Source: an uncultured Planctomycetia bacterium | GTDB lineage: Bacteria > Omnitrophota > Gorgyraeia > 2-02-FULL-51-18 | Assembly (NCBI GenBank): GCA_964402785.1 | Contig: CAYODQ010000006.1 | Span: forward strand, 1 to 60,940 | DNA length: 60,940 nucleotides | Direction of reading: 5' to 3' | Shown here: in pieces, positions 2,756-51,998 of the stretch | Position numbering within the stretch: position 1 is the first letter of the stretch | Layout: each line of letters opens with the position of its first letter | Position numbers and translations under genes: made by a program | The notes under the pieces: model-generated | Databases searched by the model: none | What the model was told of the DNA's origin: nothing | The model's input: only the letters and a program-made list of their open reading frames with translations

Positions 2756-3498
2756 TGAAGCTCAAGCTTAAAGTTTGGCGCCAAAAAAGCGCTCAGGATA
2801 AAGGCCGATTTGAATTTTATGATGCGGACAATGTGAATCCGGAGATGTCGTTTCTGGAGATGCTCGATACGGTGAACGAAGCTTTGGCGACGCAGGGCAA
2901 AGAGCCTATTTCCTTTGACAGCGATTGCCGCGAAGGCATTTGTGGGATGTGTTCTCTTGTTATCAACGGCACTCCGCACGGCCCCAACAAAGCGACGGCT
3001 ACCTGCCAATTGCATATGCGATTTTTTAAAGATGGCGAAACAGTTACCATTGAGCCTTGGCGTGCAAAAGCTTTTCCTTTGATCCAAGATCTCGTCGTAG
3101 ATCGATCTGCGTTCGATCGCGTGATCCAAGCGGGTGGGTTCGTGTCGGTCGGTACGGGAGGCGCTCCTGATGCCAACGCTTTACTTATCCCCAAGCCTGA
3201 TGCGGAGAAGGCCATGGATGCCGCTGCTTGTATAGGCTGCGGCGCTTGTGTAGCCGCCTGCAAAAATGCTTCTGCGATGCTTTTCGTGGCGGCTAAAGTA
3301 TCTCATCTATCTTATTTACCTCAGGGCCAAGTAGAGGCGTCTGAGCGCGTGTTGAATATGGTCTCTCAGATGGATAAAGAAGGTTTTGGAAATTGCACCA
3401 ATCAGTTCGAATGTCAGGCAGTGTGTCCAAAGGAGATCAGCGTATCTTTTATTGCCAATATGAACCGTGAGTATTTGAAAGCGAGGGTGACATCATGA
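2755..3498 (+). CDS. sdhB: Succinate dehydrogenase/fumarate reductase iron-sulfur subunit
   Basis: [20 protein letters not shown] and [12 protein letters not shown] Fe-S motifs; TAATG coupling to sdhA. Confidence 0.96.
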
Positions 3499-37099: not shown

Positions 37100-37142
37100 C
37101 ATCGGCGCCAGGCTCGTGCCAGGCTCGAGCCTGGCACCGATG
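37100..37142. repeat. Three-armed palindrome after ribF (possible terminator or REP-like element)
   Basis: CATCGGCGCCAGGCTCG / CGAGCCTGGCACCGATG (17 bp, 1 mismatch) with a nested perfect 22-bp palindrome at 37116-37137. Confidence 0.8.
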
Positions 37143-37316: not shown

Positions 37317-40300
37317 TTGAAGAGAGTCCGAGTTATTTTACGCTCTGTTTCCATCATCCTTTTGCAAAGTTTCATTCTGCAGCAGATCTCGTTTGCAGAT
37401 GTCATCAAACCCGTCGTCCAGAATCCTTTATCTAGAGCGGAGGTGTCTCTCGAATTGCCGGAGACGGTAGCAACGATAGAAGATGCATATAACGCGAACC
37501 AGAGCACCAGCGCACCGGCGCACCAGAAAACCATCTACCTTCTCCAAGACGCCCACACGAATGAATCTGCTCAATATAATCTGGCTAAGGCGTTGGACAT
37601 CATTTTAAAAAAAGAGAATTCTAGTTCGGAGTCGGGAGTTCGGAGTTCGGAAAAAACCTCATTTACTCACTCCGAACTCCGAACTCCCAGCTCCGAACTG
37701 AAGTTCGTCTTCACCGAAGCCGGTATCGGAGACAACTCTCTGTCTTTCCTTCGTCCCTTTAGACCTCTATCTGAAAGAACCCGTCTTGCCAAGATGTACA
37801 CCAAAAAAGGTATTCTTCATGGAGCTGAATACCTAGATCTAACATCGGATCATTCCTTTATTCTCTGGGGCGTTGAGAATCCAGATCTTTATCTTAAGAC
37901 CATAGAAGACTATAAGCATGTGGCTAAAGAGAGACCTCGATTTGAACTGTATCTCAAAAAGATAGCCGCCACTCTAGACACCTTAAACAATAGATTTCTT
38001 AATCCTTCTCTCCAACAGTTCCTTAAAGAATCCAAGCTCTATCATTCTGATAAGCTCGCTCTCACCGAATACTTCCAGGCTCTCCAACGAGAAGCCACAA
38101 TCCACAACCTAGACCTTAAAAAATACCCCCACTTAACCAAACTCAAGGACTTAAAAGATAAAGAAGAGAAGATAGACTTCCAAAAAGCCAATGAACAGCA
38201 TCAAAAAGCTGTTCAGTCTTTATCGCCCAAAGCACAACAAGAGCTAAAAGATATTTCCTCAGTTAAAGCAGGAAAGGTATTACAAAACAAAAAAGAAGAA
38301 CGTGCTTACTTCCAATACTTAGAAGAGATGCTAGGGCACCAGAGCACCAGTGCGCCAGAACACCAGAACTACACCGAGCTCAACAAATACTTTTCATACC
38401 TCAAGCTGGCCAAAGCCATCCAAGCCAAAGACATCCTGAGCGAACTCAAAGCTTTTGAAATAGACGTCTTCAAAGCCTTAGCCAAAACAGAAGACGAGAA
38501 GAGCTTGATCCAATCCGAAGAGACTCTACGCTATCTCAATAAACTTTTTACCTTCACCCTGACCCCTGAAGAGTTCGGAGTCATGAGTTCGGAGTTCGGA
38601 GCCAATAAAGGCCTCGAGCACTTAACCGGCTTCTTAAATAAAAAGATCATGGATCTTGAAACATACTACGAGAGATCACTCTTTTTAGAAAAAGGCTACG
38701 AAGAGATGATAGAAAGAGCTCTTAACTTCTATAAGCTCACCTTTGAGAGAGACCAATACTTCTTAGATCAAGCCCTATCCAAGATGGACCAAGAGAACCA
38801 AACCAAAGCTGCTCTCATAACAGGTGGATTTCACACCACAAACCTTAAAGAACTCCTTAAGAAGAAGAACATCTCTTATATCTCTATTACTCCTCAAGCT
38901 CTTCAAGAAACCAACTTAAAGAAATACGAATCCATATTACTCAACCAAATCCAAGATATCAAAACACCACAACTTACCATGAAACCTTCGATGTCGACGG
39001 CTATGCCTGTACAGTTGGCTGCATTCGCGGGTGGGTTGCCCGTGCAAGCTGGCGCAAGATTAGCGCTCGATGATCTTGCGGCAGGTAATCCTTTATTAGT
39101 TTTAGAGATCGACGGCCGCACCGCTAATCAGCGGGCTTTGCTTGATCACCTTATACGCAGGGAAGCCTCAGGGTTGGTGGTATTGCCCGCAACTCCAGAC
39201 GTTGTTTCCGAGCCTTCTTTGGATTTAACCGTGCCCGTCATAGACGCCGATCTCTTAAGGATGGGATCCGGTAATGAAGCAGTCTCTCCAAATAAAGTTG
39301 CCACCACTCCTGTTCAATTAAGCCGTAAAGATCGCGAAGTTCTTGAAGCAAGCGCCTCGCGTCAGCGCGAAGCTCGAGCAAGAAAGCCTGGCCAAGTGTT
39401 TCGTGGAGATATCATCAGAAATAGGGGAGCGAGGTTATCCGAATACGATCCATCAAGGTTTTTACGTGCTCTGGGAGTGGATCGCCCAGATACTTCATCT
39501 GCATCATCTGCAAAAGATAGGCCTAAGTGGGTTCCTGGAAACAGCGCCGCCAATGAATTGGCAGGGGTTGAAGCCGAAAGGTTTGTAGGATTTCAACAGA
39601 CGGTAGACCGATTTGAAGGCGCCTGGAATTCTTTCAGGAAAGCTTTCTTTGGAGCGAGGTTGGCAGGGGAAAAAGAGGATCGTGGATCGTGGATGGTGGA
39701 TGGTAAAAATCCCACACAATCCACAATCCACAATCCACCATCCGTCGCTGAAAGCGACCTCTCCGGCGCGCGGCTGGCAAGTGCAATAGTTTGGGGCGTT
39801 GCTGCTGTGACTGTATTTACGGGCTCTTTTTTCTTGTTTAGAAAATTTCTTAGTAAATATGATCAAATTCCTGCTGCATTGGCTAAGCCCTCCATTGTCC
39901 GCTTTACAGTGGTTGGCATGGTTACTTCGCAAATACCTGTGGCGTTTCTGATATATCAAATGTCAAAAATCGATTCGCTTACTAACCTACCGAGTCCCGG
40001 TAGCGCCGAGGAGTGGGCGCTGGTTGAGCCCATATTTGTAGCTATGATAACCGGGCTAGTTTCTGCCGCGTGGTTGCTTGCACCGATAAAGTCTTACGCG
40101 CGAGTCCAGTTCTGGCAGAATTTTTCGAACGCAGTATCTATGCAAAGACGGGGAGACCTTGACAGATTAGAGCAGATCAACCAATTACTAATAACCGGAA
40201 GCATTTTTAAAAAAGTAATTCGGTTCTATTTTCCAGAATTGGAAGATGCGGTGTTGCGGGCCATTCTTCTAGACATCGTTCAATTTGATTTGGCAGTGCG

Positions 40301-43300
40301 GAATTCTGTTCATCATAACAGCACAACATCTTTGAGATTTCTGCTTTCCAGACTGGCTGATAATCTAGACCGATGGCCCTATGGGCGATTGCCTTCATAT
40401 GTTTTTGACTCAAACTCCTATCAGAGCATGGCTTCCTGGTTGGAACAAAACCCAGATTATATATCTGAATTAAAACCTTTGCTAACAAGAGTATTATTGG
40501 ATCCACCTGTGCTTGACTCTAAAGCTGGCGCACGGCTTGCAGGAAGTCCAATCATAGCGACCGTTCGCTTTTCAGAAGAAGCCGGAACTCGCAAATGGGT
40601 TAATGGCGAAGTATCCATCGTGGCGCCATTGCAAGGTCTTGACGAATTTACTCAGCGTCGCATTGACAGATGGATGGGCTCGACCCAGTTTGACCGGAAC
40701 GCTGTATACGCCCTCCTTTTTATGGCTGGGGAGAGATTCGGTCTAGCAAAAATAACGAACAGTTTACCAACAGGCAAAAAAATAGAAGTAGTGCCATTTG
40801 TTTCAAGAGAAAGTTGGACAAGTGAAGACGTTTTGCGCGTACTAGCGCTCAACCTGCGTGTGCATGACCAAGCCCTTTCGCAACCAGAACTTCTTAACCC
40901 AGCTTCCAATATCGGTCTCAATATTAAACATGTGATAGGTGACGCTTACACCGTTGAAATTGCTTTCGGGGCTAGGTTGGCAGGGAAAGAAAGGTCACAA
41001 AGTCAAAAAGTCACAAAGCCACAAGTAGGATCACGTGTGACGGGTGACCTTGTGACCTTGTCGCCCGATGTTGCCGCTTCCTCCGGCGCGCGACTAGCAG
41101 AAAATCACGAAACATTATTAAACAATTTTTTTGGTAGCTATATCAATAACAATGAAGCTATTCACTACAATGATTATGAGGGCGCATCTGGTCGGGTGAA
41201 CTTATCTCTGAAGCGTGTCAATCAAGATGTTCCTTATCAAACTTCGCCAGGAATTTTTATATCCAAGAATTATTCAAGCGATGGCGCTTTTACGATTATC
41301 ATTGAATATAATCCCAGCCAAGAAGGCTATCATGTTTCGCGTCTTCTGTATCGTATTTCTGGTGAGCTATCACGTTTAGTTATAGTGTCAAATGAGTCTG
41401 AGCCTGTTTGGTATGTTGAATCTTCGGAGTCATTTTTTAAGAATTGGAAAAACCTATTTTTCAACATCATGTTTAGCAGTTTACATGAGACGGATCGGAT
41501 TATAGATAGTGCCACTATGGATGCATATCGCGATTGGGAAAGGCGATTAGGCCAGAGTGAGGAGCAGGAAAGTCTCGATGCATCTGCGCAAACGTTGCTA
41601 GCCGCAATAAAAAATAATTATTATTCTCATCCCTCTTTTCGCGATCAGTGGAAAATTAATTTATTGGTAGAATTATTTGAAAGTGTATTTAACTACGCTC
41701 GCATGTCTCGTTTAAAGCCAAGAGGTGTGCACGACTACTGGAACGTGTTGGGGAGAGCGCCTGCAGGTGCAGCTGTTTCTTCCGAAGCGCCTGTGCATGC
41801 TGGTATATCCAGTGACACCGAGACCAGCTCGCGATCTACGCCCCCATGGAGCACGATAAGCGGTCTTTTTGCTCATCAAAACAATTTGACGCCGACGGAG
41901 CTTGTGACCTTACTAGAATCTGCTCGCACAAAGTTGATGGAAGGTGGTTTCCAAGAGCTTTGGGTCAATATGCGTTTGGTCGACAGCAGAACCAAGGTCA
42001 TCACCGACACCCTCGGTGGATCGGGACTGGTTGAGCTTGGAAAATTTTTGGCCTCTCAAGAAGGTGGAGCGCATCGTTACCAAATTGTTTCTGATTTTAA
42101 TGACACCAGAACGCCGGATTTCAACGCAACCAACTACTACGTATTTATAAAACAATTACCTGTTAGCACTGTTGGAGCGAGGTTAGCAGATACGCGTAGA
42201 GAAAATCCAGTCCAAGCGCTAGTAAGGCGATTGCTCCGTCAGCCAGAGGTGTTGCCATCTGCCGAGCTTGATCGGGTCAATATTTCTCGTGTACGAGCTG
42301 TGTTGAATGCCGAGCCGGATCAGAATATTGTCGGGATTCTTGTTTCGCGCGGACAGAACGAGCTTGCTTCCGGAGAATGGGACTATCTCATCATAAAAAA
42401 AGATGGAAACGCTTTTTTTATGATACCGGATGAGGCTATATCTGATTACAGGTTACGTGACGAATTACAGAAATTGGGATTCTTGAATGGCGGACCCCTA
42501 AGTCCGATTATCTTAGCGGATACGCTTATGGCGGTTACAATGTTTTTGGCCACACCGGCTAAAATGAAAGGAATTCAAGTTTTTGGCGCCGATAACAATC
42601 GTCCGGTGATGCCAGATTGGACCGTTATTGCCCGATCGAAAAAACTAGACGCAGAAATTACGGCGCAGCTAGAGAAGGACATTAGGCAAGCCGAATCCGG
42701 CGCGCGGTTGGCGGCTAGAGAACTCTTAGGTGAGCGGACAGTGTACGAGCAAGTTCAAGCGGTTTTTGATGCGTTTGACGGCGACGTAACCGATAGCTAT
42801 GGAGGTGTCCTTTCTGCTCCCAGGAATGATTTAGCTTCGAGACTTTTTATTTTGGGCGTACCCCAGGACGATATTTTTGATTTAGCAGAATCCTTTCTAA
42901 GCACTGACCTAAGTGTTCATGACCTCCGAGACAGCATCGAATATATCTTAGAAGATTCTCCTATTGAGCTAACGGATGAGGTAATAGAGAAGATCCTAGC
43001 GGAAATTTTTAAACAAATGACCACTCAATCGGGTCGAAATTTTGAGACCTTTAGCGCCTCAGTGGATGCTTTGACCAAGATGCTTATCGGTCTCGGCGAT
43101 ACAGCGGAGGATGCTTCCGGTAATGCTGAATCGCTAATGGATGTGCACCCAACCTACGCTCTCATTAATCACGTGGTGGATACGCTGAGAGATTACAAAG
43201 ACGATGCTTTGGATTGGCAGTATGTGTCTGATGATGCAGATAGTGATGGGGAATTCGATGAGCCTGTAAGTGTATCTGCGCCTGCTGCGTTTGATCAATC

Positions 43301-46300
43301 AAGATCTTCTGCCGCCACCTACACATCTCCTTCATACCAAGGCACAGAAGGGCTTTCGGCAAACCAGGTGGTTACGGGCTTTCTGGTGTTGGGGGGGATA
43401 GGTGCTGCTGTAGCGTATCTATTGTCAAACAGCGAACAGCGAGAGATGATCTGGCAGTTCATTCAAAATATTAAATTTAATTTTTTTGGCGCGAGACTTG
43501 CCGTGACCAGAGAGCAAATGGCCGAAATTCATGCGATCGCGGAAGAAGAGGCGGCTCTGGATAGTGTTGCTAGATGGAACAGCACAGATGCTAGAAGAGA
43601 TCGCGAAGAGCAAAGTCGCGCTAGCGAGAGGAATGTGCGAATGGCGGAAGAGGAGAGAGCAGAGCGTCGAATCGATGATTGGAAAGCGCGTAGGCATAGG
43701 GGGGCTCGAATAGAAGTTCTCGGCGCGCGGCTTGGTTGGTGGGATCGGTTTCTAGAGAGTGTGGACTGGCTTGTGGGAAGTCTTGCGGATAGCTGGATTG
43801 TGGAAAAGAGAATTGAGAAGGCTGCGTCGTTGGGGATAGACGTTACATTTGAAACCGCTTCTTTGCGCAGAAAGTCAGGAGTGCTTATCTACGGCGGCCT
43901 TAAAACAGGTGATTTTGCTGACATTTATGTGCAGCTGGGCCGCAAGATCCGACATCACTCGCGCGCTGTTGTGCCGCAGGGCGCGCGATTGGGCGTGACC
44001 TTTTTTGGGCATCCAGCGGGCTTTCTTGAGAAGTGGAGCCTGGATCGGGTGATGGGTGTTGTGCGCAGATCTATAAGAACAAAGGCTACTTTTGAGCATG
44101 ATCCTATTACTCGGCTCTCAAATGTCTTTCAATCAGGATATACGTTTTATGATGACAATGACAAATATTGGGAAGTTGCCGTAGAACACGGTGAGGGTGA
44201 CAGGCTAAAAGCTCTTACGGTGCGAACCAAAAAATCAACGCCGAGTCTTGATGGGAGCCGTCGTCGCGATGTTCAATGGTTTGAAAAAGAATTTCTCCTT
44301 GTTTTTGGCTCAAGGGATGAGCTTTTGGCGAGACAAATTGTAAGCGAGCTTAGTGAGCAGGCTCTTGGAAGCAGTTTGCGCGAGCAAGAGACACAATATC
44401 GGGTCATTCTTAATGGGATCAGTATCTTATACGCAAATAACTTAAGCAGCCTTCTAAGCCAGCTTAGATATTATGGATATCGAGTGATGCTAAGCGGTGG
44501 CTCGGTTGTGATCAATGATGAACATGTTATAAGTGGCGACGATATCTCTTCCGAAGATATTCAGAGTATATTGGATTTGATTCAGTTTAGAAACGATGTG
44601 AAAAAAGTTAAGGGTTGGGCCGGAGCGATGTTGGGCTGGGCTGCGGATTACAGTCCTGCGGAAGCGACTTATCCGGCATTTATTTTATTTTTCAAGGTAA
44701 ATGCGCGCCAGATACTCACGAAGTGGATGCTTCGTGCTCAAGGTATCAGAGCCCCAAGCTCAATCGGTTCATCCGTTCGGATAACCAATCTCGAGGATTA
44801 TTCCCGATTCGGCCGTGATCGTCGTCGCGTCCACATGGAATCCCCGCTGATGGATGAGATCCATCAGCTCAGAGGTGCCAGGCTATCCGCGATTCCCAAC
44901 TTGTGGCAAGTCATTGAGTTGCGTGAGCCCAATCCCGCTTTGCGCAAGTCTGGGTATTTCAAAGTAGGGGATATCATAGGTGTGCATATCTCAGAGGAGA
45001 AAGGGTTTACAGAAAAAGCTCTTTTGTTTGTAACAAGTCTCGAAGCCTTGAGCGCCTTTAGGGTATATGTTAAGCGCGGGCAAGTTTTTAAAGCCATTGT
45101 TGTTCAAAATAAAGCCGAAGATGTTGCAGGAGTAGTTCGTTTTGCGTATTTAGGTCAGGACGGACTGCCGCTTGCGGTCAAAGGTAGCCCTGTTCAAGGT
45201 AGGGGCTCGGTGAAAGATCCCTCGATTGGTAAATGGAAAGAAGTAGCACCTGCCGGTGACGACTCCACCCAATCCTCTCCTGAGGAAGAAAAAACTCCTG
45301 AAAATTTTCTGCGCACGGTACGCGACAGCGGTGTGATTGGATACAAAGGCAGAGAATTCACCATCGGCTTGGGGTATGCGCGGAAGCAGGTGAAAATAAT
45401 CGAAGTTAGCGGCGGTTTTGAAATCCAGACACCGGAAGGTGTTTTGATCAAAAGATACACATTGACTGACAAGGGCTACCGAGTTTCTACAAAAGGCCCT
45501 AGTCCAATCGCATCCTCCGAGCCGACGGGCGCCCGTCTTGCAAGGCATTATCAACAAACATCCGATGGCAATTTTAGCAATCCAAACCGGTTGCCGGTCA
45601 TCATCTACGCCGAAAGTGACAATTTGATAGAGGTCAATATGCGTCATGATCTCATGGATCATGCCGAGCGCTTGGGTGTGCTGATCGTCCGCGCGCGGTC
45701 GCTGTATGCGGCGATCGAGGCAGCCAAAACAGCCGGTAAAAAATTAAAAGCCATCGTGAGCTCGGATCAATTGGCCAAATTGCCGAATGAAGAAGGATTG
45801 AAAGCGACGATCCAAAAGTTAGAGCATCCTTTGCTGGGCCCAAGAGATCCAGCCGGAGCGAACGCTGTCAAAGAGTTGGTTTACCGTGCGAAAAATACAC
45901 TTCACGTTCCTGTGGCTGTTTACGGCGAAGAGGCGTTTGCGGGCGGCGCATTTTCCACGCCGGATCAGTCCCTCATATTTGATGACACAAAATATATGGA
46001 CGAGAAGATAGCCGAATTCATCAGAACATCGCTCGGCGCAAGGCTTGCTGGAAGAATTTCAACGATCGCGCTGATATCATTGGCAGCGATTTTGCCGGGC
46101 GCATTTGTTGCAGCGAACGCAGGGTCTTGGGGATCGTGGCAGGTAAATGGTGTCCTGGCTTTGGCTACGATCCTGGTTGTGGCGGGCTCCAAACGCATGT
46201 TTCTCCCAAGCGCACCGAGCAATTATTCGTTGCCACACGCTTCGGTCGGCAGAGTTTATACAGCCGAAGAAGTTCGTATTTTAGTGTTAGAGGTTGTTGC

Positions 46301-49300
46301 AAGTGTGGCGAAGAAAGATGCTCCCTCTGTTGCGGTGGATACAAATTTAAAAAGTTTGGGATTGGGCGAAGCTGAGCTTCGAGATATCGCCGATCAAATA
46401 GATCTGAGGGTTGTTCCGGATGGCGGAGTATCATTCTCACTGAAGGCCGACCAAACTGCTTGGAGAACGCCTCAGGACATTATCCATACCCTCGAATCGT
46501 ATTTACGCGCCTCATCGCAGCTGGAGGGTGCGCGGCTGTCCTATGGGGTCGAGGGCATCCAGCATAAAACATTAAACCCTGTTTTAAAAACGGAACTCGC
46601 CGCCAGGATCGATCAGCTTATTTCTGAACATGCATCTAACTCTGACAGCAAAACCAGACAAGTTAACATTCGCGTGGATGAATTTGGAAATAGCCGCCCT
46701 ATACTTCTTGCTGCTGCATCTGTTCAAAGAGGAAAAACGCTTGGCAAAGAGACGCTGGGACGCAAGGCTGCAAGTGCGGTTAGAAATGCAGGCCCATTCA
46801 TCATCACCGAGCTCAGTGCCACGGAGTATTTGGTGACATTGTCAGGCGCTTCCAGTAAGACGCGCGGGGAAGCAGCTCAATTCTATCAGATATATATCCC
46901 GGGTGCAGCGCTATTAAGAGTGCAGAAGTCTGTGGTGGCAGGCTCCAAAGAGTATGTTCGGGGCACTGTGTCATTCACCCGTCACACCCAAGGGCCTGAT
47001 CAAGTTATCGAGGTGCCTTACGAATTGCCCGCATCAGAAACACCAGAACAAAGCGTTCGAAGAATTGCCCATTATTTGACCAGCACCTTTAACCTTTGGG
47101 ATAGGATGTACGGCGACCTATCAAAAGGGCCGGAGCTTTTAAATACCATGCCGAGGGATTATGCGATGCCGCAGGGCGCGCGGTTGTCAGAAGAGACGCA
47201 AAAAGAAAGAAGTTTGCTGTCGCAATGGCTGACCAGCGTTGCCATGGATCATTTAACTGTGTTGGATAGGGTGGCATTCGCAGTGTGGCAAACATCAAGA
47301 ATTTTGGGGCTGGGGTTTTTCGTGATAGTCGGCGGCCTGTTTATTTCAGGCCCGGGGATTGTTCTTCTTATACCGATAGCTTTCATGCTTGAGAAAGTTT
47401 ATACATCGATCGATTTCATGAGCATGTTTGCATACAAATGGCATGTGCTTCGTTTTCTTGGCTATAGCAGCCTGGCGATCACAGTATTTTCCTCGATCAA
47501 GTTTTTGCTCCAACGTTCCAACGAAGCTGATAGCTCAGGTGAAAAGATACCCATCAATAAAACGGGTGCGCGGTTGGCCGGGGAAGTGAGTTACCCCAAC
47601 TTTGTTCGAGAGCTGGAGTTATTTGTGGCGCAATCCGCCAAAGATGACCGAATTCTTTTGTATCTCATGAGCATTTTGGATAAATACGAGACTATCCCTC
47701 TGTTGAGCAGATCCAGAGATGAATTGGCGGAAGCGCTTCTAGATATTTCGCAGAGACTGGCTGAGGTAGATGCGCCAAGGGCGATGCGTTGGGATGCCGC
47801 AGATCTGGTTCGGCAAATTAGATTGTTGCAGGGGTATAAACAAGGGGATGAGTTTAGGGCACAGCTTTCGGATGCGGTCGGTATCGTTTCGCGTCTTCTC
47901 CCGCAACAAAATATTCGTTTGAGAGCCAATGGGCATCGCTGGGCGATCATTTACCCTGGAATGGAGAGGGCGGAGGCGCTTGAAGAAAAGGTGGACTCTG
48001 CTGCCAAGGAGCTTCTAAAGCGTTTATATGGATTGACCGAAGCAGATTACGATAAGGTCGCTCTCAAGGCAGATGCTTATTATAGTGAACTGCGAATATT
48101 TACCTCAAATCCATGGTTGTTTCGAGCTTTGGTCACAAAAGAGCGGGTTCCTGAGGCGCTGAAAAAAGCCGCAGCTTATTTGGCGAGCCGTGGTATTAAA
48201 AAGATCACCGTGAGTGTCAAAGATGGATCGATCACACGCGCTCAAGAGTTTGACCTTAGAGACTTTTGGAAGATCGAATATTATGCGGATGGGCTATGGG
48301 GTGGGATCCAAAGTGATCGAGATGCAATTTATGCCGTGTCTGCAAATGCGGATGGGTCTATTGCGTTTCAGAAGATCCATCATATAGGCGTCCCAAGAAA
48401 AATAAGTTCGGCAACGCTAACGAGGGCACAAGAAAATATTTCAGCCCAGCGCGCATCCAGCTCCCAAGCACCGCAAGTCGTCAGGGCGGAGCTCAACGGG
48501 AGCAATGTCTATGAACTCAGAGCCGGCGCAGAGGGAAAAGTAATAGGCCGTGTCAATCAGGCGGATAAATTGGCAACTCGATTGAATGGTTGGGTTCGAG
48601 AAGGGGTGTTGCCGAGTCTTCAATTTGAGGCAAGTTTTGCCCGTGGCAGCTGGTTCTTGGCTATAAAAGATGATCGGGGAGAAAGGACGTCCGTTCTGGC
48701 GGATGATTACCCGGCTGTCGCCCAAATGATCAATCAAATGATTGCAGGTTCGTCTGCGGCTAAACGTATAGCTGAGGAGCCAGTGCAAACAGTTTCTATT
48801 CCCACACAAGTTGCGGCACCTGTAACGGCGAGTGTAGATTTACCGCTCTTTGTGCTGGGAGCGGATTATGTAGAGTTAGCCAAGACGCTTGTCCAAGAAG
48901 CGGTCAAATCACCCGATGTGAAGATCTCTTTCGTGACGCCATATGGCCAAGCTGTGAATGATATCGCATCTTTAGGTGTGTTGAGATATCAGCTTAGCTC
49001 GCAAATGGAAGCCGGGGCACACACAAACGATCTTTATTCTCGCGGCTTACCTCGCGATCCTTATCGCTTTGAAGCGACCAGCACAACACGCACTAAGCCA
49101 GAGCTAGATCAGATTTTAAGCTCTCTCGTTAGGATTTTACGTGAAGGCGGGGCGATTGAAGGGTCTAGACTATCTTCGGATCAAGATTTGGCCGATCTTT
49201 CTAGGCGAGCTTTGAAGGAGAGGCTTTTGGCGGCGTTGGGGGAAAATCCCAGGATCCCAGTCGATGTGGATGCTTATAATTCTTACCCACAAGTGACATC

Positions 49301-51998
49301 TATAATCACGGATCAAGCCTCCGTGGAAGCGCTCATAAAGTCCCTAGCCGACAGACACCCGCGCGATCTTGTGTATTTAAATAATCCCGATGGAGCTGAT
49401 CTTTTAGGCTTGCATGTATCCTTCACAAATACCCCAGTGGATAAGGGTGCGCGGTTGGCGGGTAGTCCGATCGTAGTGAGTATTCGCGTCTCAGAAGCCG
49501 CCGGGACAATCAAGATGGTGGATGGTGTCCGATCCATTGTTGCTCCATTGGAGGATCTTGATGAGGTCACGCAACGTCGCATAAATAGATGGATGGGATC
49601 AACCAGGCCTACAAAAGATGCTGTATATGCGCTTATTGTCATTGGCGATGTCAGGCTTGGCTTAGCAAAAATATCCAACGCGACGCCGAGAGGCAAATAC
49701 GTGGAGGTTGTCCCATTTGTATCCAGAACCGAATGGACCAGTGAGCAGGTGTTGCGCTTGCTTGCGCTCAGCCTACCCGTTCATGATCCGTCGATTACAG
49801 AGATGGAACTACTTGACCCAAGATCCAACATGAATTTCAATGTTGAGGCGGTAACGAGTGATGCTTATAAAGTTACCATCAATTTTGGCGCAAGACTATC
49901 CGCACTCACTCAATCATCTACTCTTCTTCAGACCGAAGCTTCCTCAAATCTCCAAAATATGGAAAAAGACCGGTTCAAGGCCTATCTCGATGAGCGCGGT
50001 GTTTTTGCAGGTTTGGTTCGCGGCCTCGACAAAAATGATGTTCATAAACCCGTATCCGTTTTGGCGCGAATTGTGAGCGGCATGGTGTTGAGCTATGAGC
50101 TATACGAAGAAGTATCCGCTGCGGATGATTCAGTTGTTAAAAAAAGACTTTTCTTTAGGGCGCGCCCAGCCAATCATCCTTTTACTTTAAATATTGCGCT
50201 TCCTACGGGAGAAGCCGCGCGGGATCAAGAGCAATCCCTGGCGCCATTTTTGATGGGGACTCATGACTTTTTTTATTTTATCGGAGCCATGACCCTGGAT
50301 AGCATCGCGGACGAAGTTAAAGCTAAAGGCCGTGTCAGCGAATTGGATAGAACGATAGAAGGCTTGCTTGCGTCGTATTCGCTTAGGATCCCCACTGCAG
50401 CCCCAGTCACAGTTCTGCAGTCAGCCGAGGTGGTAAAGGGTGACTCCGTGACCCCGCGCCGGGCACGCGAGGCAGTTTCTAGATCCGATGATGCAGAACG
50501 TTTCCGAAATCGAACTGATCTTATATTGTCGTACGTCGCCACAAACGAAGCCTATAAAAAAGGATTTTCAACAGCCGCATTAGCTCATGACACTAAGCTG
50601 GTTATTCCGGCATATGGAGCGGTAGCGCAAACTAGCAATCTGACGGGTTTAAGCTCCCGCTATTTGGCAATTCACAAGGTATTATCTTGGGCCTTAACTA
50701 ATGGCCGAATAGGCGCTTTGCCGGACTCATCGCCGCAGATATATATTCTAAAAGATGTCAAAGCCTCGGAGGTTGGCGCGCGGTTAGCTGGCAAGCAGTT
50801 CGGAGTAGGGAGTTCGGAGTTCGGAGCGCGTGAATTTCGTGCATCAAGAGTTAACGTTGCAGGTCTTTTTGGCCGCGCATCAGAAAATCTGGTGCCTGGT
50901 GCGTTGGTGTCTGGTGCTCTCGGCGAAGCCGATGGTGCGCGTGAATTCCGCGGCTCAAGATTGTCGGTGGCACAGCTTTTTGGCCAGAAGTCTAAATCAC
51001 TAAGCCCAACTCAGTCACCCGTCACCAGCCACCAGACACCAGTTGCTGCGCAGGGTAACTTGCTTCGCCAAGTCGGCGGTTTCTTGGTCGGAACGGCCCA
51101 CGCAGGTCTTGTAACCCAGCCTTCTCAGTCCATATCAATCTTGTTGGATCCCTCTCAAGCCACGATCTTTGAGTTATCCCTAAACAGAGATGAGCTCATT
51201 GTGAATCTAAAGGGTGGTGAGAAGTTGGGTGTATTGAGTGCATCCAGTGCCGATGTTGAAAGAAATGATCAAGGCATACCCCAGTCTGTCAAAGTTGATG
51301 TCGCGGAAGCTCTTTCACTGCTCAATATGAGCAGTCAATCCATGGAGTCAGCCCTTTCGGATCGCTTGGCTAATATCGAGACCTTAACTCCCACACTCCT
51401 CATTGCTCATCTTGAGACGTTTGGAGACATTAGAATCAACCCTATTACATTAGACGCCTTTATTCTAGGGGTAAGCCAGTTAGCCGACAAACTAAACAAG
51501 AAGGGCAATAGAGATGTTCTAAGGGTCACTTTATATAGCCGTGATCAAGAGCTGTCTGCTATTGCCGGCGCAAGGCTTGCAGCTCTTCAGAAAAAACATC
51601 CGTTTGTTGTCCGCAGTTTTGTTTTGAAAACAACTCTTGCAGGATTCATTGCCGTGAACGCCCTGGTGCCAGGTTCCCAAGCGGCCGAAGCCTCACAAAG
51701 ACTTCTTCCTGTTCAAGCTCTACAGCCAGGTGATGTATTCAGCCCGGCCCTTTCAACTCTCTTATCCGTAGGAATTGCCCAGGAAGCCCAAGGTCAGCCT
51801 ATCAGCGATAGCACCGTCAAGGGCTTTGAAGTAGCCACGGGCATTAAGGCAGATAGGGGAGAGTTGCAAGAAGTGATCTTTGACGGCACTAAACTCTCTC
51901 TCATGCAAAAATACGCCATCAAGCCCATCTTGCAGCAAATAAGCCAGTATTTGCAGGTTCTTAAAATGCAAATGAAGCAGGTTGCGCAGGCGGCATAA
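37317..51998 (+). CDS. Giant modular protein (4893 aa): signal peptide, putative TraB/Tiki-like N-terminal domain, modules delimited by GARL[ASG] motifs
   Basis: Uninterrupted 14.7-kb frame; 22 exact in-frame GARL motifs; duplicated 147-aa module; several TM segments. The ORF is well supported; the functional labels are inference. Confidence 0.9.
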   Translation: MKRVRVILRSVSIILLQSFILQQISFADVIKPVVQNPLSRAEVSLELPETVATIEDAYNANQSTSAPAHQKTIYLLQDAHTNESAQYNLAKALDIILKKENSSSESGVRSSEKTSFTHSELRTPSSELKFVFTEAGIGDNSLSFLRPFRPLSERTRLAKMYTKKGILHGAEYLDLTSDHSFILWGVENPDLYLKTIEDYKHVAKERPRFELYLKKIAATLDTLNNRFLNPSLQQFLKESKLYHSDKLALTEYFQALQREATIHNLDLKKYPHLTKLKDLKDKEEKIDFQKANEQHQKAVQSLSPKAQQELKDISSVKAGKVLQNKKEERAYFQYLEEMLGHQSTSAPEHQNYTELNKYFSYLKLAKAIQAKDILSELKAFEIDVFKALAKTEDEKSLIQSEETLRYLNKLFTFTLTPEEFGVMSSEFGANKGLEHLTGFLNKKIMDLETYYERSLFLEKGYEEMIERALNFYKLTFERDQYFLDQALSKMDQENQTKAALITGGFHTTNLKELLKKKNISYISITPQALQETNLKKYESILLNQIQDIKTPQLTMKPSMSTAMPVQLAAFAGGLPVQAGARLALDDLAAGNPLLVLEIDGRTANQRALLDHLIRREASGLVVLPATPDVVSEPSLDLTVPVIDADLLRMGSGNEAVSPNKVATTPVQLSRKDREVLEASASRQREARARKPGQVFRGDIIRNRGARLSEYDPSRFLRALGVDRPDTSSASSAKDRPKWVPGNSAANELAGVEAERFVGFQQTVDRFEGAWNSFRKAFFGARLAGEKEDRGSWMVDGKNPTQSTIHNPPSVAESDLSGARLASAIVWGVAAVTVFTGSFFLFRKFLSKYDQIPAALAKPSIVRFTVVGMVTSQIPVAFLIYQMSKIDSLTNLPSPGSAEEWALVEPIFVAMITGLVSAAWLLAPIKSYARVQFWQNFSNAVSMQRRGDLDRLEQINQLLITGSIFKKVIRFYFPELEDAVLRAILLDIVQFDLAVRNSVHHNSTTSLRFLLSRLADNLDRWPYGRLPSYVFDSNSYQSMASWLEQNPDYISELKPLLTRVLLDPPVLDSKAGARLAGSPIIATVRFSEEAGTRKWVNGEVSIVAPLQGLDEFTQRRIDRWMGSTQFDRNAVYALLFMAGERFGLAKITNSLPTGKKIEVVPFVSRESWTSEDVLRVLALNLRVHDQALSQPELLNPASNIGLNIKHVIGDAYTVEIAFGARLAGKERSQSQKVTKPQVGSRVTGDLVTLSPDVAASSGARLAENHETLLNNFFGSYINNNEAIHYNDYEGASGRVNLSLKRVNQDVPYQTSPGIFISKNYSSDGAFTIIIEYNPSQEGYHVSRLLYRISGELSRLVIVSNESEPVWYVESSESFFKNWKNLFFNIMFSSLHETDRIIDSATMDAYRDWERRLGQSEEQESLDASAQTLLAAIKNNYYSHPSFRDQWKINLLVELFESVFNYARMSRLKPRGVHDYWNVLGRAPAGAAVSSEAPVHAGISSDTETSSRSTPPWSTISGLFAHQNNLTPTELVTLLESARTKLMEGGFQELWVNMRLVDSRTKVITDTLGGSGLVELGKFLASQEGGAHRYQIVSDFNDTRTPDFNATNYYVFIKQLPVSTVGARLADTRRENPVQALVRRLLRQPEVLPSAELDRVNISRVRAVLNAEPDQNIVGILVSRGQNELASGEWDYLIIKKDGNAFFMIPDEAISDYRLRDELQKLGFLNGGPLSPIILADTLMAVTMFLATPAKMKGIQVFGADNNRPVMPDWTVIARSKKLDAEITAQLEKDIRQAESGARLAARELLGERTVYEQVQAVFDAFDGDVTDSYGGVLSAPRNDLASRLFILGVPQDDIFDLAESFLSTDLSVHDLRDSIEYILEDSPIELTDEVIEKILAEIFKQMTTQSGRNFETFSASVDALTKMLIGLGDTAEDASGNAESLMDVHPTYALINHVVDTLRDYKDDALDWQYVSDDADSDGEFDEPVSVSAPAAFDQSRSSAATYTSPSYQGTEGLSANQVVTGFLVLGGIGAAVAYLLSNSEQREMIWQFIQNIKFNFFGARLAVTREQMAEIHAIAEEEAALDSVARWNSTDARRDREEQSRASERNVRMAEEERAERRIDDWKARRHRGARIEVLGARLGWWDRFLESVDWLVGSLADSWIVEKRIEKAASLGIDVTFETASLRRKSGVLIYGGLKTGDFADIYVQLGRKIRHHSRAVVPQGARLGVTFFGHPAGFLEKWSLDRVMGVVRRSIRTKATFEHDPITRLSNVFQSGYTFYDDNDKYWEVAVEHGEGDRLKALTVRTKKSTPSLDGSRRRDVQWFEKEFLLVFGSRDELLARQIVSELSEQALGSSLREQETQYRVILNGISILYANNLSSLLSQLRYYGYRVMLSGGSVVINDEHVISGDDISSEDIQSILDLIQFRNDVKKVKGWAGAMLGWAADYSPAEATYPAFILFFKVNARQILTKWMLRAQGIRAPSSIGSSVRITNLEDYSRFGRDRRRVHMESPLMDEIHQLRGARLSAIPNLWQVIELREPNPALRKSGYFKVGDIIGVHISEEKGFTEKALLFVTSLEALSAFRVYVKRGQVFKAIVVQNKAEDVAGVVRFAYLGQDGLPLAVKGSPVQGRGSVKDPSIGKWKEVAPAGDDSTQSSPEEEKTPENFLRTVRDSGVIGYKGREFTIGLGYARKQVKIIEVSGGFEIQTPEGVLIKRYTLTDKGYRVSTKGPSPIASSEPTGARLARHYQQTSDGNFSNPNRLPVIIYAESDNLIEVNMRHDLMDHAERLGVLIVRARSLYAAIEAAKTAGKKLKAIVSSDQLAKLPNEEGLKATIQKLEHPLLGPRDPAGANAVKELVYRAKNTLHVPVAVYGEEAFAGGAFSTPDQSLIFDDTKYMDEKIAEFIRTSLGARLAGRISTIALISLAAILPGAFVAANAGSWGSWQVNGVLALATILVVAGSKRMFLPSAPSNYSLPHASVGRVYTAEEVRILVLEVVASVAKKDAPSVAVDTNLKSLGLGEAELRDIADQIDLRVVPDGGVSFSLKADQTAWRTPQDIIHTLESYLRASSQLEGARLSYGVEGIQHKTLNPVLKTELAARIDQLISEHASNSDSKTRQVNIRVDEFGNSRPILLAAASVQRGKTLGKETLGRKAASAVRNAGPFIITELSATEYLVTLSGASSKTRGEAAQFYQIYIPGAALLRVQKSVVAGSKEYVRGTVSFTRHTQGPDQVIEVPYELPASETPEQSVRRIAHYLTSTFNLWDRMYGDLSKGPELLNTMPRDYAMPQGARLSEETQKERSLLSQWLTSVAMDHLTVLDRVAFAVWQTSRILGLGFFVIVGGLFISGPGIVLLIPIAFMLEKVYTSIDFMSMFAYKWHVLRFLGYSSLAITVFSSIKFLLQRSNEADSSGEKIPINKTGARLAGEVSYPNFVRELELFVAQSAKDDRILLYLMSILDKYETIPLLSRSRDELAEALLDISQRLAEVDAPRAMRWDAADLVRQIRLLQGYKQGDEFRAQLSDAVGIVSRLLPQQNIRLRANGHRWAIIYPGMERAEALEEKVDSAAKELLKRLYGLTEADYDKVALKADAYYSELRIFTSNPWLFRALVTKERVPEALKKAAAYLASRGIKKITVSVKDGSITRAQEFDLRDFWKIEYYADGLWGGIQSDRDAIYAVSANADGSIAFQKIHHIGVPRKISSATLTRAQENISAQRASSSQAPQVVRAELNGSNVYELRAGAEGKVIGRVNQADKLATRLNGWVREGVLPSLQFEASFARGSWFLAIKDDRGERTSVLADDYPAVAQMINQMIAGSSAAKRIAEEPVQTVSIPTQVAAPVTASVDLPLFVLGADYVELAKTLVQEAVKSPDVKISFVTPYGQAVNDIASLGVLRYQLSSQMEAGAHTNDLYSRGLPRDPYRFEATSTTRTKPELDQILSSLVRILREGGAIEGSRLSSDQDLADLSRRALKERLLAALGENPRIPVDVDAYNSYPQVTSIITDQASVEALIKSLADRHPRDLVYLNNPDGADLLGLHVSFTNTPVDKGARLAGSPIVVSIRVSEAAGTIKMVDGVRSIVAPLEDLDEVTQRRINRWMGSTRPTKDAVYALIVIGDVRLGLAKISNATPRGKYVEVVPFVSRTEWTSEQVLRLLALSLPVHDPSITEMELLDPRSNMNFNVEAVTSDAYKVTINFGARLSALTQSSTLLQTEASSNLQNMEKDRFKAYLDERGVFAGLVRGLDKNDVHKPVSVLARIVSGMVLSYELYEEVSAADDSVVKKRLFFRARPANHPFTLNIALPTGEAARDQEQSLAPFLMGTHDFFYFIGAMTLDSIADEVKAKGRVSELDRTIEGLLASYSLRIPTAAPVTVLQSAEVVKGDSVTPRRAREAVSRSDDAERFRNRTDLILSYVATNEAYKKGFSTAALAHDTKLVIPAYGAVAQTSNLTGLSSRYLAIHKVLSWALTNGRIGALPDSSPQIYILKDVKASEVGARLAGKQFGVGSSEFGAREFRASRVNVAGLFGRASENLVPGALVSGALGEADGAREFRGSRLSVAQLFGQKSKSLSPTQSPVTSHQTPVAAQGNLLRQVGGFLVGTAHAGLVTQPSQSISILLDPSQATIFELSLNRDELIVNLKGGEKLGVLSASSADVERNDQGIPQSVKVDVAEALSLLNMSSQSMESALSDRLANIETLTPTLLIAHLETFGDIRINPITLDAFILGVSQLADKLNKKGNRDVLRVTLYSRDQELSAIAGARLAALQKKHPFVVRSFVLKTTLAGFIAVNALVPGSQAAEASQRLLPVQALQPGDVFSPALSTLLSVGIAQEAQGQPISDSTVKGFEVATGIKADRGELQEVIFDGTKLSLMQKYAIKPILQQISQYLQVLKMQMKQVAQAA
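37623..37699. repeat. Heptamer hairpin, 4x AGTTCGG / 4x CCGAACT, inside the giant ORF
   Basis: Mirror arrays at 37623-37650 and 37672-37699. Confidence 0.9.
39677..39743. repeat. Heptamer hairpin, 4x GGAT[CG]GT / 4x AC[AC]ATCC, inside the giant ORF
   Basis: Arrays at 39677-39704 and 39716-39743. Confidence 0.85.
40993..41065. repeat. Octamer hairpin, 4x AGTCACAA-like / 4x TTGTGACC-like, inside the giant ORF
   Basis: Arrays at 40993-41024 and 41035-41065. Confidence 0.8.

Follow-up and report, generated by a model that had tools for sequence, protein, structure and literature searches.

A conserved N-terminal domain and a recurrent GARL motif in giant open reading frames of Omnitrophota: a possible polyprotein with a candidate built-in protease

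Is the product of a giant open reading frame (ORF) in Omnitrophota cut into smaller proteins, and if so, where and by which enzyme? The question is raised by an ORF of 4893 amino acids (aa) in a 60,940-nucleotide (nt) stretch from an uncultured freshwater Planctomycetia bacterium, placed by GTDB in Omnitrophota (assembly GCA_964402785.1, contig CAYODQ010000006.1, positions 1 to 60,940, forward strand). We refer to this whole stretch as the window; it is contig C6 of a 2.05-Mb assembly of 77 contigs that is 91% complete. An original prediction, made from the letters of the sequence, covered the first 558 codons of the ORF and proposed that they encode a hydrolase-like domain of the TraB/Tiki/ChaN/Ere type that cleaves the rest of the chain at repeated GARL sites. 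The observation behind that prediction was confirmed as real and highly non-random, and a built-in processing protease is a plausible reading of the sequence. The main parts of the ORF are as follows.

37317-51998, forward strand: giant ORF of 4893 aa with a TTG start (ORF listing and translation).
37317-37397, forward strand: signal-peptide-like or membrane-anchor start, aa 1-27 (KRVR, a hydrophobic helix, then SFA followed by D; sequence read and AlphaFold2 model).
37449-38960, forward strand: conserved N-terminal domain, aa ~45-548, an alpha/beta core into which ~300 aa of helices (aa 189-492) are inserted.
39051-51581, forward strand: body with 22 GARL sites (motif scan).

GARL was found 22 times in the body, compared to 0.22 on average and never more than 4 in 2000 shuffles of the same residues. 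The N-terminal domain, hereafter the head, had been described as free of the motif, and no GARL lies inside it; the first is at aa 579. The sites and their near-variants begin at the following residues.

GARL, first half: aa 579, 704, 779, 817, 1071, 1218, 1257, 1620, 1795, 2058, 2136.
GARL, second half: aa 2222, 2520, 2738, 2907, 3071, 3287, 3417, 4044, 4191, 4487, 4751.
Near-variants: GARI at aa 2129, GAML at aa 2436, GSRL at aa 3949 and GSRL at aa 4546.

The flanks of 141 sites in the family members of this genome were unconserved except at position +5 (A in 89, S in 37, T in 7, G in 3, V in 3 and P in 1), with small or polar residues somewhat commoner around the sites. The window's own 22 sites have A, S, T or G there. 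Family-wide, the motif reads [G/A]-[A/S/T]-R-[L/M/A]-[A/S/G/T]; AARL, GARM, GARA, GSRL or GTRL predominates in some family proteins, and the variants are mixed within proteins and within genomes. Arginine and leucine each use five codons across the 22 sites. With synonymous codons differing from site to site, it is the peptide that is constrained, and the motif is unlikely to serve at the DNA level, for example in recombination. There is a mild nucleotide bias at the GARL codons on top of the peptide constraint: 16 of the 22 arginine codons end in G (AGG or CGG), CGC is used at 0 of 22 compared to 19% of the arginine codons of the ORF, and the alanine codon is GCG at 14 of 22 sites compared to 28% across the ORF.

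We determined how often GARL followed by A, S, T or G occurs with and without a head. In the genome of the window, head-bearing ORFs held 131 occurrences in 56,133 aa. Other ORFs of at least 700 aa held 9 in 117,302 aa, seven of them in one contig-end fragment, and shorter six-frame ORFs held 12 in 808,176 aa. The density in head-bearing ORFs was approximately 150-fold that of the other six-frame ORFs, and in this genome the motif is essentially restricted to ORFs with a head domain. For the wider family, a relaxed motif, [GAS][AST]R[LMAIV][ASTG], was counted in 123 bodies of at least 800 aa with 200 shuffles each. There were 998 sites compared to 122 expected; 82 of the 123 bodies exceeded all 200 of their shuffles and 89 had five or more sites. 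The commonest 4-mer, where it occurred at least four times (87 bodies), was a piece of the motif in 80. In contrast, none of eight control giant ORFs without a head was enriched.

The motif also lies at recognizable borders in the chain.

39051-39065, forward strand: first GARLA, aa 579-583, about 30 aa past the end of the head in a low-confidence linker (motif scan, model).
40527-40967, forward strand: 147-aa module, copy 1, aa 1071-1217, GARL to GARL (sequence comparison).
49446-49886, forward strand: 147-aa module, copy 2, aa 4044-4190, GARL to GARL (sequence comparison).
51567-51995, forward strand: conserved C-terminal domain, aa 4751-4893, opening at the last GARL, with a tail ending in QAA (jackhmmer).

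In 62 of 70 loci from other assemblies, the distance from the end of the head to the first site was at most 100 aa (median 42.5 aa); in the representative set it was 49 aa. The two module copies are 60.5% identical over 147 of 147 residues, and the similarity ends at the motifs; with the window's copy as query, the module had no match in 400 other genomes of the phylum. The C-terminal domain (~120-143 aa) was found by jackhmmer in 55 of 142 large family proteins, ending at most 8 residues from the C-terminus, and had no match in PADLOC or PHROGs. Many family tails carry an extra site 8-15 aa before the terminal AA, for example ...GSRLAALLQAA, the extra motif being followed by 4-10 residues and the terminal AA. 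Between head and tail, the body consists of about 25 unrelated modules of 7-532 aa. When segments of the window's protein were compared by BLAST to the 142 other large family proteins, 130 of 132 matches were to the head, and essentially nothing was matched beyond head and tail.

These borders bear on whether the chain is cut at all. The product could instead remain a single uncut giant protein of the surface or membrane in which G-A-R-L-[A/S] is a linker, or a docking motif serving folding, secretion or binding, and the head acts externally. Giant ORFs of Omnitrophota are usually discussed as adhesin- or coat-like, and 7 of the 123 fused relatives manage with at most one relaxed site. However, a five-residue motif with an invariant arginine and unconserved flanks is typical of a recognition site and untypical of a structural linker. 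The motif also bounds the duplicated unit to the residue, and it stands right past the head, right ahead of the C-terminal domain and often 8-15 aa from the C-terminus. We regard an uncut chain as rather improbable, and cleavage at the motif as somewhat favored.

The residues on which the original prediction relied were all found where it had placed them: IYLLQDAH at aa 73-80 (H80 at nt 37554), FVFTEAG at aa 130-136 (E134 at nt 37716), LWGVE at aa 183-187 (E187 at nt 37875), FERDQ at aa 476-480 (R478 at nt 38748) and ALITGGFHT at aa 499-507 (H506 at nt 38832). Their structural setting is as follows.

37548-37556, forward strand: D78-A79-H80 (acidic-x-His), end of strand 72-78 (alignment, model).
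37716-37718, forward strand: E134, end of strand 130-133 (alignment, model).
37875-37877, forward strand: E187, end of strand 182-186 (alignment, model).
38748-38753, forward strand: R478-D479 in helix 461-492 (alignment; hhalign to R-N of TraB).
38823-38834, forward strand: G503-G504-F505-H506 (GGxH), end of strand 497-503 (alignment; hhalign to GAGH of TraB).

Conservation was counted in an alignment of 142 family head domains. Thirteen positions were invariant (D78, H80, E134, G185, Y192, E283, Y472, R478, G503, G504, H506, P526 and Y537), and E187, N82, D479 and T532 had one exception each (141/142). H80, E134, R478 and H506, the residues singled out beforehand, were thus retained in every homologue, and they were also unchanged in all 12 paralogues of the same genome. 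An AlphaFold2 model of the head (33-sequence alignment; mean predicted local distance difference test score, 82.7; predicted template modeling score, 0.74) had each of H80, E134, E187 and GGxH506 at the C-terminal end of its own strand, with R478 on the helix preceding the last of the four strands. The long helical stretch described earlier was seen in the model as about 300 aa of helices (189-492) between the halves of the core. The invariant positions are mostly polar or charged (D, H, E, E, R, H, Y) and so point to an active site; in the aligned sequences, the pattern of conservation is that of one.

To which superfamily might such an active site belong? The original prediction named the TraB/Tiki/ChaN group from the order of the motifs. 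That signature (strand-His, strand-Glu, helix R-[DN], strand-GxxH) is present, collinear and on the expected elements of the model. A bona fide TraB of the same phylum (L109; PF01963, E 6e-68) has His, Glu, R-[DN] and GxxH in the same order, reading LLGSIH, VLEAN, RNREM and VGAGHL, and like the head it has a helical segment between the core halves. According to passages of PMC6254334, the superfamily is marked by a parallel sheet with two histidines and two glutamates, in RRSP E3900-x-H3902, E3930 and H4030, plus R4001. The corresponding residues of the head would be D78-x-H80, E134, H506 and R478, with an Arg-to-second-His spacing of 28 residues compared to 29 in the superfamily (PMC6254334).

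Profile comparisons gave further links below threshold. Across 151 genomes of the phylum, PF04187 (ChaN, "Tiki superfamily") had 16 matches. The head family accounts for 13, all of which lay in the R...GGxH region, with family hidden Markov model (HMM) E values of 1e-22 to 1e-91. Their weight comes from being clustered in a single short stretch of a single family. A rescan of ten proteins returned PF04187 in 10 of 10 (E 3.7e-6 to 1.4e-3), which is itself no evidence because the ten were chosen for matching it. The best reached 27.5 bits compared to a cut-off of 27.7, and its place had scored 28.0, above the cut-off, in the six-frame genome search. One of the ten also matched Erythro_esteras (E 0.0024). 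In a related genome, an internal ChaN-like stretch of a 1733-aa frame (L093; G135:C1:442250-445549) scored 28.9 bits with PF04187 and reads, by eye, GEEH, VLEID and GFAGSRH; it had no match to the head-family HMM and so represents another type of Tiki-like domain within a giant protein.

We also aligned the 142 head domains to 120 TraB sequences with hhalign, using reversed alignments as controls. Over the whole domain, R478 and H506 aligned with the Arg and His of the R...GxGH block of TraB (P 0.027), and a separate, weaker match aligned H80 with the first TraB His (0.26). The C-terminal lobe alone gave P 0.0021 with Arg and His aligned. In an ESM Atlas search, the window's fragment returned the family's own unnamed clusters only. 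A homologue (P0048) returned three own-family clusters first, and four of the next six rows were DUF5694 or TraB_PrgY_gumN, with template modeling (TM) scores of 0.49, 0.47, 0.51 and 0.47 compared to 0.31 and 0.25 for the other two. The TraB and DUF5694 alignments spanned about residue 65 to about residue 515, covering both lobes and skipping the insertion.

Several results weigh against membership. The window's own protein had nothing above the curated threshold in Pfam, NCBIfam, PDB sequences, PADLOC or PHROGs, and it stayed below the gathering scores of the TraB/Tiki/ChaN/Ere models PF01963, PF04187 and PF05139; a profile scan with PF01963 had no match to the head family. The N-terminal lobe aligned to TraB at 0.15 with reversed controls at 0.14 and 0.022, so only the C-terminal lobe stands out. 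The PDB searches showed no structural link to the superfamily, whose solved members include ChaN (2G5G), Bcr135 (3B55), 5T09 and RRSP: Foldseek returned zero matches at E<=0.001 for the whole head model, with no Tiki-superfamily chain among the ranks listed, and zero at E<=0.001 for the separately modeled N-terminal lobe, with no Tiki-superfamily chain in 24 matches. The Atlas TM scores, at most 0.51, were flagged "under the bar." The likeness could be convergent or due to chance, the head having some other fold or a non-enzymatic role such as an anchor or export module. The missed thresholds, the two empty PDB searches, the low hhalign probabilities with an N-terminal lobe at noise level and the Atlas flag all fit that view. 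In contrast, thirteen mostly polar or charged positions are invariant in 142 sequences, and independent methods converge on one superfamily while aligning the same residues. We consider a chance likeness quite unlikely and homology to the TraB/Tiki/ChaN/Ere superfamily probable. Taken together, several weak lines agree and the assignment is partly supported, with formal membership short of established.

Most likely, the head represents a new branch of that superfamily, one that has diverged deeply while its catalytic site stayed intact. It would differ from the known members in that its ~300-aa insertion is itself conserved (E283, Y358, Y361, E376, E381), in its further conserved residues (N82, Q86, Y192, Y472, P526, Y537) and in being fused to thousands of residues of cargo.

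The head belongs to a large family. Its first 578 aa had 11 further copies in the same genome at 25-64% identity (BLASTP), each opening a giant frame of 2076-6738 aa; the head-bearing ORFs total 56,133 aa, or 168 kb, about 8% of the genome. An HMMER scan of 1.84 billion representatives (clusters at 50% identity) gave 6199 clusters at E<=1e-3 and 3874 at E<=1e-10, with the head nearly always N-terminal in proteins of 2000-6900 aa. Among 169 candidate stretches from a collection of species-level genomes, 151 proved to be head family. By assembly title, the 80 of these that were retained were mostly Candidatus Omnitrophota/Omnitrophica or "uncultured Planctomycetia," with several copies per assembly, and one Auribacterota and one Eisenbacteria lay outside these groups. 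Within the phylum, 218 of 401 sampled genomes had a head at E<=1e-10. Among relatives of near length, 22 of 23 had no precomputed Pfam domain, and the three with names were all "hypothetical protein." On contig C1, a 763-aa head ORF precedes a GARL-rich ORF of 5377 aa. A natural split was considered here and rejected: an assembly gap of ~100 N with duplicated flanks lies between them (L012 2275-2374), and the two frames are one broken gene. The last 22 aa of a 4062-aa frame on contig C36 match the first 22 of a 7299-aa frame on contig C13 (20/22), and these are probably one gene of ~11,300 aa.

Some heads form a stand-alone clade; the five examined, from five genomes, are each followed by separate ORFs.

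L112 4279-18544: stand-alone head and following separate ORFs.
L113 3095-15477: stand-alone head and following separate ORFs.
L114 11473-15882: stand-alone head and following separate ORFs; the next ORF ends in ...SSAA, like the family tail.
L115 4526-16092: stand-alone head and following separate ORFs.
L116 13286-14947: stand-alone head and following separate ORFs.

These heads (548-558 aa) keep QD[AI]H, E134, E187, R478 and GGFH, and they end roughly where the first site would fall. The next ORFs, on the same strand and 921-3304 aa long, have 0-1 relaxed motif and at most one GARL each, with no enrichment. The co-occurrence of head and repeated motif, which the original prediction named as a check, is seen in the 82 enriched bodies and, in reverse, in the head-less controls; it is not seen in the seven site-poor relatives or in 5 of 5 stand-alone heads examined. 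The motif vanishes where gene borders replace it, as would be expected if it stands in for such borders, and this again argues against a chain that is left whole.

How, then, might the chain be processed? The N-terminus of the ORF reads KRVRVILRSVSIILLQSFILQQISFA followed by DV and resembles a signal peptide; A27 is retained in 124 of 142 homologues, and the model shows a helix at aa 2-26 and a low-confidence linker at aa 27-39. With such a start ahead of it, an extracytoplasmic location of the head is plausible. In the mechanism that we propose, this start would lead to export of the ~500-aa head, a putative divergent hydrolase with acidic-x-His, Glu, Arg and GGxH on an alpha/beta core with a long helical insertion. 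The ~4300 aa after it would be a string of unrelated, fast-evolving modules, some with membrane helices, closed by the C-terminal domain and separated by G-A-R-L-[A/S]. A cut ~30-50 aa after the head would release the head first and then the modules, and the head would be the best candidate for the cutting enzyme.

Candidate membrane helices complicate this scheme. A Kyte-Doolittle scan (window 19, threshold 1.6) gave about nine, spread along the body.

39783-40088, forward strand: three hydrophobic helices, aa 823-841, 860-878 and 906-924 (Kyte-Doolittle).
Further hydrophobic helices: aa 1728-1746, 2018-2036, 2914-2932, 2945-2963 and 3334-3352 (Kyte-Doolittle).

Such helices would put sites on both sides of the membrane, and if the head is exported, those on the cytoplasmic side would be beyond its reach unless the chain is cut before insertion or delivered elsewhere. 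Moreover, the stand-alone clade keeps the enzyme without the sites, so cutting them cannot be the sole conserved role of the head. Both points count against self-processing. They would also be met by a different protease acting in trans on GARL-type motifs, for example a housekeeping or envelope endopeptidase specific around arginine; the head's job might then lie in the prey or host envelope, in another part of the precursor such as the C-terminal tail, or with an Ere-like ester substrate. The superfamily does include non-proteases, namely the Ere esterases (passages of PMC6254334) and the haem-binding ChaN (Pfam description). The mixture of GARL, GSRL, GARM and GARA within single proteins and genomes fits a tolerant trans enzyme as well as it fits one in cis. 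However, a motif that tracks the head, both in the genome of the window and against the eight control giants, speaks against a trans enzyme, as does a site directly past the head in 62 of 70 relatives. No second protease candidate was seen either; the neighbors are housekeeping genes (truB, ribF, pnp, ftsK). We judge a trans protease unlikely, if less so than an uncut chain.

A complex prediction of the head (aa 40-550) with a 45-aa stretch around the first GARLA scored 0.01 and speaks neither for nor against self-processing. Of the explanations considered for the motif, the polyprotein reading is the best. As a whole, an exported polyprotein-like precursor with a divergent TraB/Tiki-type head, cut at the motifs, with the head as the best protease candidate, is a possibility to which we give somewhat less than an even chance. 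The step that names the head as the responsible protease is tentative in its own right and slightly more so.

The proposed organization shares features with known systems. Like MARTX toxins, it would be one very large secreted chain with unrelated modules released by a built-in protease, and one MARTX effector, RRSP, is a Tiki-fold endopeptidase, although there it is cargo and not the processing enzyme (passages of PMC6254334). The processing enzyme of MARTX is a cysteine protease domain, unlike the head, and MARTX has no five-residue punctuation motif of the GARL kind. The MARTX cysteine protease cuts after leucine. In viral polyproteins, as proposed here, a protease shares a chain with its substrates and short sites mark the product borders, including the protease's own end; gingipain-type bacterial polyproteins likewise hold protease and substrates in one chain with short border sites. 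The giant ORFs differ from viral polyproteins in being carried by a cell, in whose genome a dozen of them are interspersed with housekeeping genes, in their orphan modules of no recognizable function and in that cleavage is putative.

Giant ORFs already described in Omnitrophota (10.1101/2023.11.21.568195; PMC10066038; 10.64898/2026.06.07.730766) resemble the present ones in phylum, great length, poor annotation and richness in membrane helices. At 2-11 thousand aa, the present ORFs are shorter than those, and their head and tail domains set them apart as a family of their own. In the passages available from that literature, post-translational cleavage is proposed for some giant ORFs, with C39 and S8 peptidase domains suggested and cleavage points unknown; the lack of cleavage-point information prevented domain-wise analysis (10.1101/2023.11.21.568195), and the roles of these ORFs are called poorly understood (PMC10066038). 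The same passages held no mention of polyprotein, GARL or TraB, and those of PMC10066038 none of protease, cleavage or repeat. Nothing relevant to GARL motifs was among the literature matches listed. We found no description of the head family, the GARL motif or an Omnitrophota polyprotein model in the literature searched, which left aside the supplements, where such ORFs may be listed.

Upstream of the giant ORF are ligA, an integrase-family gene, truB and ribF; downstream are pnp, ftsK, rodZ, a radical-SAM/TRAM enzyme and pgsA. No secretion or protease gene dedicated to the giant ORF was found among the neighboring genes examined, and no toxin domain was recognized in the ORF. A terminator-like inverted repeat at 37100-37142 (arms of 21 nt, 90% complementary and 1 nt apart) lies directly 3' of the ribF stop and 175 nt upstream of the giant-ORF start. 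The 4893-aa ORF has no cysteine. The 12 head-bearing ORFs of the genome with their attached body fragments have 0-5 each (at most 0.11%), compared to 0.3-2.1% in several other large ORFs of the genome.

The coding sequence of the head-bearing genes is also rich in short tandem arrays with units of 7 or 8 nt and mostly about four copies each. Genome-wide, 80 of 162 such arrays lie within head-bearing giant genes, a density of 0.48 per kb in their 168 kb compared to 0.044 per kb elsewhere (11-fold). In paralogues, perfect (GGTCACCA)x4 runs occur in variable loops of the head.

37494-37526, 37623-37651, 37669-37699, 38336-38367 and 38571-38601: tandem arrays in the window.
39677-39743, 40990-41024, 50797-50826, 50889-50917 and 51012-51043: tandem arrays in the window, continued.
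L006 1378-1410 and L007 1667-1702: tandem arrays at two further loci.
37616-37706, forward strand: in-frame palindromic element with 36-nt arms of (AGTTCGG)n and its complement (repeat search, RNA fold).

Neither unit length is divisible by three, so that gain or loss of copies would alter the reading frame, and the arrays are possible sites of slippage or phase variation. Contigs from three DNA runs of one freshwater study gave thin, fragmentary cover, and their loose ends at tandem arrays show only that the arrays recur elsewhere. The palindromic element is an inverted pair of such arrays, with arms 86% complementary, a 19-nt loop and ~35 bp (-58.5 kcal/mol, z -10.2). It encodes a ~30-aa loop insertion (aa ~101-130) in the head that, among the 12 paralogues, is present only here and in the closest one (C25:19911). 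Rickettsia has in-frame palindromic elements, which this hairpin resembles.

Giant ORFs typify Omnitrophota, and what they do is a question that the literature itself leaves open. The present family offers a conserved and probably enzymatic head, a conserved tail and a simple motif that predicts product borders, so that whether the chain is cut, where and by what become directly testable. The TraB/Tiki superfamily, few members of which have a known substrate, would gain a large unannotated branch of 6199 clusters at 50% identity. That Omnitrophota widely use virus-style polyproteins as a form of gene organization, with a built-in Tiki-type protease cutting [G/A]-[A/S/T]-R-[L/M]-[A/S], is a broader proposal that these sequences suggest and that we hold to be doubtful. 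If it were true, each giant ORF would amount to up to ~25 unrelated lineage-specific proteins, both soluble and membrane-bound, sister lineages would have the same head enzyme alone, ahead of ordinary separate genes, and the 7- and 8-nt tandem arrays could switch individual giant genes on and off.

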